From Eledone cirrhosa (Eukaryota), in the NCBI GenBank assembly GCA_964016885.1, contig OZ024741.1:341248001-341312000 (forward strand): a DNA stretch of 64,000 nt, in the 5' to 3' direction. Position numbers and translations under genes: made by a program. Below, in pieces: positions 2,302-64,000 of the stretch. How positions within the stretch are numbered: position 1 is the first letter of the stretch; each line of letters begins with the position of its first letter. Below the pieces are notes generated by a model, which was given only the letters and a program-made list of their open reading frames with translations, searched no databases and was not told the origin of the DNA.

Positions 2302-2367
2302 TCATCAGTTGTCTACTGGGGTTCTCGGATATTTCCACGCTTTAAAGACAAGATGTCTACTGCCCAG
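2302..2367 (-). ncRNA. Candidate permuted hammerhead
   Basis: Minus strand gacaT-C-ttgtct-ttaaagcgtg-GAAA-tatc..agacaa-CTGATGA; helix I 6 bp, helix III with one mismatch, outer helix ctggg/cccag. Confidence 0.6.
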
Positions 2368-3020
2368 AGCGTTCAATAACTGGGTAAGTTATTGGGAAAA
2401 TGGAGGAGGAAGGGAAGGAAAATAGAAGGGAAAAGGGAAGAAAAGAGAAAACAGCGAAAAAAAGAACAAACCGAGCAAAATGCGAGCAACTTAAGGTAAG
2501 AAAATCCAAGACCACAGCGATAACAGAACTTAAGTTCAAGAGCGTGTGGGCGAGCAAAGAGACACATCTGACCCCAGCGAGTGTAAGTGAGAAAAGGACT
2601 GCTAGAGGGTTAGGTGAGGGAAACAATGAGGTGGCTGACTGAGAGAGGATGAGTGAAAGTGAGAGGGAGAAAGGCAGAGGAAGAAAGAGGGGTAAGAGTA
2701 AAAAGTAACAAAATAGGTAGGTAGAAGGAGAGAGAAGACTGACACACACATACAGTGTTAAAAATGGATGCTTTTCATTTTTGAAAGAAACAATATAGAT
2801 TGACAGAATAAAGAATTCATTACATGTATAGAGAGTATGCCATGAATAATTTTGTTGATAGTTAAATAGAAGTTTCCACACTAGTAGCTTATTGAAACTG
2901 TTATTTTGAACATATCACAATTGGGAAAACTTCAGTCACTATCATCATCACTTACATGGGCTGGAAAGAATATGTTCAACCCATGCAAGCATGAAAAAGT
3001 AGATATAAAAGGATGATGGT

Positions 3021-4619: not shown

Positions 4620-59285
<54,666 letters not shown>

Positions 59286-59636: not shown

Positions 59637-62270
59637 AGAAGACGGGACAAAATGTCTGTTGTAAACACTAAATACCTCCCCCGTGAAGAATGCACCTCCC
59701 AACATAGCCTAGTGGTTAGTGACCTCATAGCCAGGAATAGACGTACTCGACGACAGAGGAGGCCTACCTTGAGGAGAAGAATATGGAAGTTGAAGGACCC
59801 CATAGCCAGTGACAAATTTAAAAGCTTATTACTTGATGCCTTTGACAATAAGGAAGAGCAATTAGAGATGTACAATATAGAGGAAGAGTGGCAATTCTTG
59901 AAAGTGAACCTGCTGAAAGCAACGGATGAAATCTGTGGCTGGAGCAGACCTATAGGCAGGAGGAGAGTAACTTGGTGGTGGAACAGTAAGGTGGAGGAGT
60001 CAATCAAGGCCAAAAAGCAGGCTTGGAAAGTATGGCAGGATGGGGGAAGTAGAGAGCACTATCAAGTAGCCAGGAGAGAAGCTAGGAGACAAGTGTACCT
60101 TGCAAAAAGAGTAGCAGAGGATAGAAAGCTCAAGCATGTTCTGCAACGTGAGGACCAAAAACATGAGGTGTTCAGGATTACTAGACAATGTGTCAAGGAA
60201 AACCGTGATATTGTCGGGGAGAAGTGTGTCCGTAATGATAATGGTGTACTTGCGCTCACTGATATTGATAAGAAGATAGCCTGGAAGAGTCACTATGAGA
60301 GACTACTAAATGAGGAGAATAAATGGGAAAAAGATAGTCTGCCCCAAATCGATCCAATAGAAGGACCAGCGGTGCAAGTTAAAGGTAGTATAATAAGTAA
60401 GGCAATCAAAGATATGAAGACAGGCAAGGCAGCTGGGCCTTCGGAGATAGTTGCTAAGATGTTGAAGGCATCTGGTATGGTGGGACACACTATGGTCACC
60501 CGTATAGTTAACCAAGTAATACAGAATGGGGTCATACCGAAAGGGTAAAGGGGATGCTCTAGATAGGGGAAACTATAGAGGCATTAAGTTAGTTGACCAG
60601 GTCATGAAGGTCACAGAAAGAGTTATAATGCAACTAATCAGAGAGCGAATTGATCTAGATGAAATGCAGTTTGGGTTTGTGTCAGGTAAAAGTACCACAG
60701 ACGCTCTTTTCCTTGTACAACAACTACAAGAGAAGTATTTAGCTAAAAGTAAACCCCTCTACTTAGCTTTTGTAGACCGGGAGAAAGCTTTTGACAGAGA
60801 CCCCCGCTCCATTATCTGGTGGGCTCTTAGAAAACTAGGTGTAGATGAATGGCTTGTGAGAGGTATACAAGCTATGTATAATGAAACAGTCAGTAAGGTT
60901 AGAATTAACAATGAATATTGTGAAGAATTTAGTGTAAAAGTTGGCATTCATCAAGGCTCTGTCTTTAACCCCCTCTTATTTATTATTGCCCTTCAGGCTA
61001 TAACAGAGGAGTTCAAGACCGGCTGCCCATGGGAACTCCTATACACAGGTGATCTAACGCTCATAGCTGAATCAATGGCTGAACTAGAGAAGAAATTCGA
61101 AACATGGAAGCATGGCCTAGAATGAAAAGGCCTTAAAGTTAACTTGTCTAAGACTAAAATTCTAGTTTGTAGAAAGGAAAATAGGACACAGGTGCCCTCA
61201 GGGAAATGACCATGCTCAGTGTGTAGGAAAGGAGTAGGCAGAAATTCCATTTTATGTCCCAAATGCAAACTATGGGTACATAAAAGATGTAGTGGGATCA
61301 CAGGTAAACTATCTAAGAACGTAGACTTTATATGTGGCCAATGCTTAGGTGCAATAAGTAGCAAGTGTCCATAGGATACTAGCTCCTTCCATTGCCCAGA
61401 TGGTTCTATAGAAATAGTAGACACTTTCCGTTACCTGGGTGACAAAATCACCAGTGGAGGGTGTTCTGAAAGTACAGTAGCCAGAGTCAGAATGGGATGG
61501 AAAAAGTTCAGAGAGCTTATACCACTGTTGGCCACAAAAAGTTTCTCTCTAAAAATGAAAGGCAGATTGTATGATGCCTGCATACGAACAGCAATGCTAC
61601 ATGGCAGTGAGACATGGGCCTTGTGTACAGAGGATCTATGCAGACTGGAGAGGAACGAAGCTTGCATGCTCCGTTGGATGTGTAATAGTAATATACGTGA
61701 ACGGCAAAGCATAAATGAACTAAGTGAGAAATTAGGAATAAGAGGGATCAGATGCTGTTTACTTGAGAGAAGACTACAATGGTCATGTGATGCGCATGAA
61801 AGACGACAGCTGCATAAAAAAGTGCAGGGCGATCAAAATTGATGGTAGTTATGGAGTAGGTAGACCCAGAAAAACCTGGGATGATCTGATAAATTCCTAC
61901 CTCACACACTTACATCTCTCTGGGATAATGTCTCTGGACCGAGATCTTTGGCGCTACGCAGTAATACAGAAGACCCGCCTTGCCTATGTACAAAGCGAAA
62001 CCTACAGTCAGTAGGCACCTCTTAACCAAATATACACCCCAATCTACTACCCCTACCCTAACCTCCCACTCCCACCAACAACACGAGATAATGAGATCGA
62101 GATCGTGTAGGTGTCACGACAAAAAAAACAAAAAAAACACACAGTCCACGCTATAATGTGGCCTTGTAGGTAACATGGTAAAAAGTTCCCAGTTCCACAC
62201 TGTAAATGTGGTTGGTGTTAGGAAGAGCATCCAGCCATAGAAAACCTGCCAGATAGTCCTATATGAGCGA
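59637..62270 (+). mobile_element. RTE LINE subfamily A, 5'-truncated and frameshifted
   Basis: ORFs 59511-60548, 60526-61125, 61492-61842 and 61763-62014 are collinear with the 30676 ORF; YADD has decayed to YTGD; starts after (TA)n; tail replaced by an inverted duplication. Confidence 0.92.
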
Positions 62271-62906
62271 TATAGCGTGGACTGTGTGTTTTTTTGTTTT
62301 TTTTGTCGTGACACCTACACGATCTTGATCTCATTATCTCATTTATTAGGACTGGATGTTGTGGTACCAACTTTACAGACAGAGGGTGGTGTTGGTGGGA
62401 GTGGGAGGATAGGGTAGGGGTAGTGGATTGGGGTGTATATTTGGTTAAGAGGTACCTACTGACTGTAGGTTTCGCTTTGTACATAGGCAAGGCGGGTCAC
62501 ATATATATAAATACATACATATATATATACATATATATATATACATACATATTATATACACATACATATATATATATACATACATATATACATGCATACA
62601 TACATATATACATGCATACATATATATATACATAATGTGCTGACATGTTAAAAGTTAAATTCTGTGCCAACCTCGTTAGACTTGAGTTTATCCCAGTTTA
62701 ACTGATGTTAAGCAACTGAGAGTACACCAGACTTGCTCACTGCTGGTATTCACTTCATTACACCTAAGTGGACCGAGTTTATATTCATAGAAATCTGGGA
62801 CTTGTCTCTTTCTTCTCACTTTCTGTTGCCTAAACCATTTTGTTTGTTCACCCTAACGTTCTCTTTATTTACGTGTCCCAACGACTTTTTTTAGCCGTTG
62901 TTCGCA

Positions 62907-62971
62907 CCAACCTGAGGTATATGGCCCTTAAAGCGATGAAATGCCTGGGACGGTTGGAGGGTCACTGATGA
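62907..62971 (+). ncRNA. Candidate hammerhead ribozyme, non-circularly permuted
   Basis: aggtaT-A-tggccct..GAAA-tgcct..agggtca-CTGATGA: helix III 6 bp, helix I 7 bp, outer helix ccaacc/ggttgg. Confidence 0.7.
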
Positions 62972-63536
62972 AGGACTCACTTTTTCATATGTATCCCATT
63001 TGCAACGCCGCAGCTCCATTATTATCATATTTACACATATATTTTTTCCTCTGCTGCCACCCGTCTGTTTCGTTCTTTGTATCTTTACCCTTTCTAGCAG
63101 TCTCTCTCTCTCTGTTAGCCTCTTCCTCAACTTTCACTCACTCATACCCTGTCACTGCCTCTCCTCCTCTCCTCTTTCTTCCCGCTTGACCTGTCCGATT
63201 TCTTTTCTCGCGCACTCTTGGCCAAGCCGGTATGAAATTTTTTTTCTCTCTCTCTCTCGTCTGCGTCTTCACAGAACTTATGTTTACCGAATTCGCAGAC
63301 CAGACCCCTTCTTCTTCCTCCCCGTTAGACCTGTGCGAAATTCCTTCCTCGCTCACATTTCAACCAGGTTTGATGGTCTTTATTCTCTAGTTCACGGTTT
63401 TATCGAGTTTATATTCATAGAAATCTGGGACTTGTCTCTTTCTTCTCACTTTCTGTTGCCTAAACCATTTTGTTTGTTCACCCTAACGTTCTCTTTATTT
63501 ACGTGTCCCAACGACTTTTTTTAGCCGTTGTTCGCA

Positions 63537-63601
63537 CCAACCTGAGGTATATGGCCCTTAAAGCGATGAAATGCCTGGGACGGTTGGAGGGTCACTGATG
63601 A
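63537..63601 (+). ncRNA. Candidate permuted hammerhead, identical second copy
   Basis: Exact repeat of 62907-62971 at +630. Confidence 0.7.
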
Positions 63602-63660
63602 AGGACTCACTTTTTCATATATATATATATATATATAAGAAAGCCTTTGACAGCCTTTGG

Positions 63661-64000
63661 CAGTCAGCAAAGTTAGGATTAGCAATGAGTATAGCGAGGA
63701 ATTTAGCGTACAGGTCGATGTCCACCAGGGCTCTGTTCTTAGCCCTCTCCTGTTAATTATAACCCTGCAGGCAATAATGGAGGAGTTTAAGACCGGATGC
63801 CCATGGGAACTCCTGTATGCAGATGACCTCGCACTTATAGCTGAATCTATGGTAGAACTAGAGAAGAAATTCCAAACTTGGAAGCAGGGACTAGAAAGAA
63901 AGGGTCTCAAAGTCAACCTGACAAAGACTAAAGTCCTTGTAAGTAGACAAGAAAACAGAACCCAGATCCCCTCAGGGACATTTCCCTTGCTCAGTATGTA
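63661..64000 (+). mobile_element. RTE RT fragment running off the window end
   Basis: VHQGSVLSPLL..GCPWELLYADDL..LKVNLTKTKVL. Confidence 0.88.

Follow-up and report, generated by a model that had tools for sequence, protein, structure and literature searches.

A predicted hammerhead ribozyme with a rearranged strand order in a tandem repeat of Eledone cirrhosa and its likely relationship to Naiad retrotransposons

The window, i.e., the whole 64,000-nucleotide stretch of Eledone cirrhosa DNA that was analysed, contains a non-coding insertion at 62774–63624 (plus strand). This comprises 148 nt of a 5'-truncated repeat unit, a whole unit of 630 nt (62922–63551) and 73 nt of the next, and ends in (TA)n. 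Belonging to the repeat family referred to here as A, it carries a putative ribozyme at 62907–62971 and an identical core at 63537–63601, within a second, identical ribozyme (63531–63601, plus strand; H17 = A63551). Other mobile sequences were observed in the window. LINE copies, which we take to be RTE-like, occur at 30469–33249 (plus), 35232–36899 (minus), 60500–62000 (plus) and 63640–64000 (plus); one has an open frame of 926 codons, and an inverted partial LINE copy lies 2 kb from it. A broken fragment of a Penelope-type reverse transcriptase occupies 47850–48340 (plus). The positions 26843–26944, 47153–47210 (minus) and 58084–58141 (plus) hold a long, nearly perfect hairpin repeat, present in many loci, as well as two tRNA-like matches; the latter fall just below the Rfam cut-off and are probably SINE heads.

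In the first family A copy, the strands of the hammerhead core were read on the plus strand in an unusual order. The cleavage-site block S (62916–62929) includes helix IIIb, U16.1 (62920), H17 (A62921) and helix Ia, with cleavage predicted 3' of A62921. It is followed by the G block (62933–62945), consisting of helix IIb, G12-A13-A14-A15.1 (62938–62941) and helix IIIa, and then by 62952–62971, which includes the 3' strand of an outer helix, helix Ib and the C block CUGAUGA (62965–62971); there is no helix after A9. The 5' strand of the outer helix (62907–62912) pairs with 62952–62957. Just upstream of it, 62902–62905 pairs with 62933–62936 according to sequence and covariation, and so takes over from the strand that normally forms the 5' side of helix II, although U62901 faces U11.1 (62937) as a mismatch atop this helix. 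Between the outer helix and block S, 62913–62915 (U3n, G2n, A1n) is the non-bulged strand of a predicted kink-turn, together with a loop and G-A at 62946–62951. Helix I has 7–8 bp, helix III 5–6 bp and the outer helix 6 bp, these being the lengths given in the original prediction; the upstream hairpin that it also described was located at 62879–62900, with an A.C mismatch leaving six of seven pairs. All core nucleotides were present (C3-U4-G5-A6-N7-G8-A9, G12-A13-A14, A15.1-U16.1 and H17).

Helices I and III surround the core and covary, as in hammerheads generally, and a helix II that would stack under G12 is formed through 4–6 bp with the 5' strand, its top pair being mismatched in group A. 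The block order, S-G-C, is none of those that define types I, II and III (CGS, GSC or SCG, without a pseudoknot). A descriptor for the S-G-C order with at least 5 bp in both helices I and III matched the window twice, compared with a mean of 0.0 and a maximum of 0 in 100 dinucleotide shuffles; when relaxed to 4 bp in each helix, the shuffles gave a mean of 0.08 and a maximum of 2. A four-helix descriptor also matched twice, and not at all in 60 shuffles. Therefore, the non-circularly permuted order originally proposed for both family A copies (X-Z-Y in its notation) was borne out by the sequence and by these counts. It had also been anticipated that descriptors for types I to III would miss such a core; indeed, an Rfam scan of the window returned no hammerhead among the 150 of 181 matches listed, nor was one returned for five ribozyme-bearing Naiad loci considered below. 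The minimum-energy fold of 62877–62975 was another structure, as computed by a program that handles nested folds and has pseudoknots outside its scope.

Three further copies with the same order were found in the window. The first (2302–2394, minus strand, with hairpin; H17 = C2352) belongs to a family B with units of about 540–575 nt, and has one mismatch (C.A) in helix III. The second (57165–57256, minus strand, with hairpin; H17 = A57215) represents family C and is decayed: G12 has become T at 57198 and helix I is broken. Its tail repeats at 589 nt. The third (19533–19602, plus strand; H17 = C19559) represents family D; it is old and decayed, with a weak helix I and lost 5' strands. Elsewhere, family D keeps the 5' strand of helix II and the outer helix, and lacks the kink-turn. 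The cores predicted at 2302 and 57165 (minus) and at 19551 (plus) do exist, but all three are decayed and none passes the strict descriptor. Furthermore, three sequence families had been proposed and the window holds four, since the copies at 2302 and 57165 differ in helix III, the outer helix and the unit.

Searches of the 3.0-Gb genome recovered the four families, with 1468, 1695, 899 and 42 candidates at first look. All 11 core nucleotides were intact in 30 of 33 rows for family A, 28 of 36 for B and 22 of 32 for C; that is, the core was conserved across copies, loss of which would have spoken against the proposal. A pattern combining the linker and GAAA had 16,312 matches in the genome against 12 for a reversed control, while GAAA followed by CUGAWGA had 12,846 against 218 in the control. 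A chance match in repeat-rich DNA could be envisaged because relaxed descriptors with one core mismatch do match scattered, unrelated loci. However, the absence of strict matches from shuffles, both genome counts, and covariation across four families and the Naiads of other organisms are contrary to it. The shuffle and genome counts refute chance as an explanation, and its remaining probability is negligible.

The most unusual feature concerns helix II. The bases after A9 do not pair with the bases before G12; instead, the partner of the bases preceding GAAA is, in each of the four families, the strand just 5' of the outer helix. This helix has 4 bp in family A (62902–62905 with 62933–62936), 5 in B, 6 in C and 5 in D, and both of its sides have changed at four positions among families A to D. 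A helix II of 0–1 bp had been predicted, which is correct for the usual partner strand and overlooks the 4–6 bp formed with the strand 5' of the outer helix. Covariation was evaluated in a block alignment of 17 rows, which comprised five real copies from the window families and 12 metagenome Naiad ribozymes, the near-duplicate L282 being left out. Paired cells numbered 83 of 85 for helix I, 83 of 85 for helix III, 82 of 85 for the outer helix and 79 of 85 for helix II with the 5' strand, values that none of 2000 column shuffles reached. For the usual helix II, the figure was 21 of 85, lower than the mean of 30.1 in the shuffles. Covariation of helices I, III and the outer helix across families, its absence being another result that would have counted against the prediction, was therefore upheld. 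The 12 Naiad rows were chosen by a descriptor that requires these helices, so that pairing in them is partly built in, and the alignment rows are not independent because repeat copies are related. Controls on the Naiad rows gave no antisense matches and none in 60 shuffles, against 13 matches among 18 loci in which CUGANGA occurs no more than 600 nt from the end of the ORF. The block-anchored alignment was used in place of a MAFFT alignment, which misaligned families B, C and D at the 5' helix (47% paired). In family A, a longer, G.U-rich register of the 5' strand, sharing bases with the upstream hairpin, was often favoured by the scripts; the register abutting the outer helix was adopted because it is the same as in B, C and D.

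The top pair of helix II bears on whether the core is really opened. G10.1-C11.1 is the favoured top pair in hammerheads. C11.1 faces a G in the 5' strand in all 13 Naiad 3'-UTR ribozymes, whereas the base after A9 is a G in only three of them. The corresponding position is a U.U mismatch in group A (62901/62937) and an A.G in most of family B. If these molecules were plain type-SGC hammerheads with a helix II of a single pair (A62972-U62937), the 5' strand would only stabilise the fold and the core would not be opened. The base after A9 could indeed pair with 11.1 throughout family A (A-U, 33 of 33), in most of family C (A-U, 29 of 32) and in D (G-C), and the 5' strand does mismatch 11.1 in group A. 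Nevertheless, the same pair is impossible in most family B rows (G.G in 23 of 36), in 10 of the 13 Naiad ribozymes and in 1,777 of the 2,881 genome matches with A at 11.1. A covariation of the base after A9 with 11.1 in group A was rejected on the last count, since only 1,104 of those matches have the U required. Moreover, the SGC hammerheads of Eckert et al., as presented in the text of PMC10085705, have a covarying stem II, and their interaction strand lies 3' of the C block. A one-pair helix II in an unopened core is therefore unlikely. Rather, because the 5' strand mostly supplies helix II, nothing after A9 needs to pair, and the backbone is likely to be open inside the core, between A9 and helix II (10.1). 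Copies with a weak top pair may be slow, or A62972, which could pair with U62937, may serve as 10.1.

A kink-turn has a C-G pair, a 3-nt bulge, and the pairs G1b.A1n and A2b.G2n. In families A to C, the loop that connects helix III with the outer helix largely agrees with this consensus at the sequence level. Family A had G1b in 32 of 33 rows, A2b and A1n in all 33, and G2n in 32 of 33. Families B and C kept G1b, A2b and A1n, and had U at 2n in 35 of 36 and 30 of 32 rows respectively. There was no kink-turn pattern in family D.

The original prediction was right that natural, non-circularly permuted hammerheads have been reported: the class is in print, and the order seen here is that of type SGC (PMC10085705). 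According to the text of Eckert et al. 2023 (PMC10085705), type-SGC hammerheads, i.e., HRIMA-1 and SGC variants, have the order site-GAAA-CUGANGA and are known only from environmental RNA. The window ribozymes share with them the block order, the core nucleotides, the pseudoknotted helices I and III, a linker of about 3 nt between helices I and II, and a helix tying stem I to stem II. They differ in that CUGAnGA and the stem II strand form one unbroken block in type SGC, CUGAnGA leading directly into that strand, whereas the window ribozymes have the stem II and interaction strands 5' of the motif, leaving the usual helix II paired in few cells of the alignment; the kink-turn-like sequence of families A to C is a further difference. 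The tying helix corresponds to the well-paired outer helix, with its second strand 5' of the motif and not 3'. Because the 5' strand rebuilds helix II, the window ribozymes are not type SGC as defined; judging from sequence, such a ribozyme would work like a hammerhead without being a member of that type. Only two natural metagenome sequences of type CSG are described (PMC10085705). They have the same ring of strands, from which the window form differs in where it is opened, namely inside the core; it would become CSG if A9 were connected with the 5' helix II strand and the chain were broken after IIIa. We infer that the fold is a circular permutation of the SGC/CSG/GCS ring, opened in the core rather than in a loop, or equivalently an SGC ribozyme whose 3' part, made up of the stem II and interaction strands, has been shifted to the 5' end. 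The outer helix would then take the position that the stem I-II interaction helix has in SGC and CSG, an equivalence drawn from the text of PMC10085705.

Family A is a non-coding unit of 630 nt, with 97–100% identity among the copies fetched. It occurred as partial tandems, as arrays of up to 21 junctions, and back-to-back with inverted, 5'-truncated copies. Units of family B were about 540–575 nt (with one spacing of 652) and those of family C 530–590 nt. Among 37 family A 3' ends from 22 loci, 13 were at unit position 73 and 19 at 121 (32 of 37), followed by (TA)n; these positions are alignment ends that overshoot shortly into (TA)n, and long ends were preferentially picked up by the query. 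Of 12 inverted pairs, nine had one arm ending at 73 and the other at 121, meaning that one arm only had the longer tail. The window elements combine 5' truncation, partial tandems, an inverted copy, a one-sided tail and a (TA)n target. One locus (G000:C1:132609127-132623614) holds some 21 family A units and, in addition, an inverted block, and two unit haplotypes alternate over much of its length; therefore, the long array did not arise from a single monomer circle alone, and rolling on one such circle was rejected as the source of the 21 junctions.

The tandem arrangement suggests another possibility, in which two adjacent units dimerise to give an ordinary type I hammerhead and the observed order is an accident of repetition; according to PMC6765202, Penelope type I hammerheads with a short stem III are thought to act as dimers. 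However, the partner strands are all contained in a 70-nt stretch of one unit, while the type I order would draw on three units 630 nt apart and on a helix II after A9, which is absent. Helix III is not short (5–8 bp), and single copies behind Naiad ORFs retain the whole fold. Such a dimer is very improbable.

A more serious objection is that the fold is real but that the copies here are slow or dead relics, and that the repeats spread without cleavage. All inserted family A chains except three span an intact cleavage junction, of the five copies in the window three have decayed, helix II has a weak top pair, and the SGC rates given in PMC10085705 are rather slow (0.007–0.19 per min). Against this, the core is kept by families and subfamilies while the helices change on both sides, which requires selection during spread, and chains that cross the junction are also expected from re-ligated circles, going by the retrozymes described in PMC7229834. 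Spread without cleavage is accordingly considered improbable.

The window elements resemble animal non-LTR retrozymes in consisting of non-coding tandem units with one hammerhead each, in their proposed Penelope origin (PMC7229834; Li et al., bioRxiv 10.64898/2026.07.22.740005), and in a GC content below 50% (44% here). As far as those two texts were available, the known elements have type I hammerheads and units of about 170–400 nt, and circular RNA has been demonstrated for them. The present ones differ in having the opened S-G-C form and units of 540–740 nt (630 nt in family A, and B and C as above).

Penelope-like insertion anatomy, including a tail at one end, is described by Craig et al. 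2021 (PMC8557442), and the window elements resemble Naiads in that text in their (TA)n targets, 5' truncation, partial tandems, inverted 5'-truncated copy and tail at one end; this anatomy is not specific to Naiads because it is shared with other Penelope-like clades. The likeness extends to the ribozyme, the same fold being seen at the 3' end of many Naiads. The window elements are unlike Naiads in encoding no protein, and so have no ORF with N-terminal GIY-YIG, CxC, DKA and RT. In the same text, Naiads are said to be without a canonical hammerhead, although some hold 'HHR_core' or 'HHR_half_core' strings fitting no descriptor. The last 300–350 nt of 44 of the 54 published consensus records (Craig 2021, File S5) were examined by eye. 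The S-G-C order was seen in 11 of the 44, from a ctenophore, cnidarians, an acanthocephalan, a crustacean, a spider and two octopus elements, and 10 of these 11 had the 5' helix II strand; the two octopus ends also showed the upstream hairpin and the kink-turn pattern. Seven nematode ends (one assigned by file part only) appeared to be complete C-S-G hammerheads, with full helices I to III and the outer helix at the same place. Neither order was seen in the remaining ends of the 44, over the same 300–350 nt.

Further Naiad-type elements were obtained by using a decayed Naiad RT of the E. cirrhosa genome to recover proteins with N-terminal GIY-YIG, CxC and DKA, which led to 75 metagenome loci from the best 80 of 352. 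The four-helix fold was found on the sense strand, 75–486 nt behind the ORF, in 13 of the 75, or 13 of the 47 with at least 300 nt downstream; it occurred once upstream of the ORF (L238) and never in antisense. The other 62 loci had no such 3' motif, and many of them are short. Wherever motifs were found in the ORFs of fold-bearing loci, GIY-YIG preceded DKA and DKA preceded RT. An Rfam scan produced no hammerhead row in 19 Naiad loci, including the five ribozyme-bearing ones mentioned above. No Naiad loci were found in viral contigs or in a first metagenome scan.

Another conserved, structured motif of about 60 nt was present in 16 of the 75 loci, none of them among the 14 with a hammerhead; it lay behind the ORF in 14 of the 16 (L225:3169, L226:2433, L227:2132, L228:2151, L236:1905, L239:3273, L243:128, L248:2321, L253:3601, L254:3661, L257:3548, L275:2356, L283:2467, L284:671, L289:1609 and L292:2122 are all of the positions). 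It had no Rfam match, and one of its strands bears what we take to be a resemblance to the twister-sister cleavage strand. From its sequence and position, it is possibly a second ribozyme at the same place in Naiads. A like motif was noted by eye in the published Naiad ends of a bivalve and, twice, of Clytia, within the records covered. In addition, L278:1855-1913 (plus strand), behind a Naiad-type ORF, gave a weak twister-P5 match of 32 bits (gathering threshold 37.6, E = 0.009).

A coding parent was sought in the E. cirrhosa genome. A Naiad RT motif pattern had 21 matches, against 54 in the control, and six of these looked like decayed Naiad RT. The remnants were broken and 68–84% identical to the query copy, in contrast to the near-identity of family A copies. 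None of the 20 remnants that were extended had an A to D ribozyme downstream, and a further 18 loci yielded only unrelated nested elements and no coding Naiad with such a ribozyme; across these 20 old, broken remnants and 18 loci, no 3' end common to family A to D units and a coding Naiad was found. A short pattern from a published octopus Naiad ribozyme had no matches in this genome. Penelope-type ORFs near family A arrays were rejected as parents; they belong to different families with a C-terminal endonuclease, and are separated from the arrays by (TA)n or nested in antisense. One Penelope-type element with a C-terminal endonuclease ends, by eye, in an ordinary type I hammerhead (L081:690-760, plus strand), and therefore both wirings coexist in this genome. 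With no coding parent found here, descent of families A to D from Naiads is inferred from what the two have in common, namely the fold, the linker and the pattern of insertion.

The explanation preferred, with a probability of roughly 0.7, is that the 630-nt repeat carries a self-cleaving hammerhead with an opened core, and that it is a retrozyme-like Naiad derivative, cut once per unit and copied by a Penelope-type reverse transcriptase. Its basis is the sequence, the covariation, the copy number, the insertion anatomy and the presence of the fold behind Naiad ORFs, from which folding, cleavage, circles, the partner enzyme and Naiad descent are proposed. From 5' to 3', the fold would consist of the IIa strand, outer helix, kink-turn, IIIb-U-H-Ia, a 3-nt linker, IIb-GAAA-IIIa, the kink-turn loop, outer helix and Ib-CUGANGA. 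Transcription would run through tandem units, each being cut once, 3' of H17 (A62921), and the unit RNAs might be ligated to circles by a host ligase, as seen for other animal retrozymes in the available text of PMC7229834. A Penelope-type reverse transcriptase would copy the unit RNA back, with priming by nicked (TA)n on the AUAU motifs that lie some 70 or 110 nt beyond the cut. The repeat itself is likely to be a non-coding derivative of Naiad retrotransposons. Taken as a whole, the original prediction was right but incomplete, and is partly supported: it did not include the 5' strand, the kink-turn consensus, the setting in a mobile element or the connection with Naiads.

We lean, with somewhat less confidence, towards a broader reading. 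A four-strand hammerhead with its core open between A9 and helix II, a wiring not in print, would be braced by the outer helix and by a kink-turn that perhaps binds a host protein, and would represent the missing Naiad ribozyme across several animal phyla. Nematode Naiads would be the C-S-G opening of the same ring, and tandem duplication within one transposon clade would therefore have moved the opening point, while other Naiads would have swapped in a different structured RNA at the corresponding position.

No report of permuted hammerheads in Naiads or animals was found in a literature made up mostly of open sources, with few subscription journals, and the available portions of bioRxiv 10.64898/2026.07.22.740005 and PMC13725137 report none. 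If the interpretation is true, animal genomes would for the first time be known to contain a non-circularly permuted hammerhead, one of them with more than 16,000 copies. The published assumption that CUGAnGA and the stem II strand are inseparable would be broken, and the statement that Naiads lack hammerheads would be corrected. A natural series, with C-S-G in nematodes and the opened S-G-C form elsewhere, would bear on how permutations arise. Finally, a host and a role would be named for a class known so far from unassigned environmental RNA.
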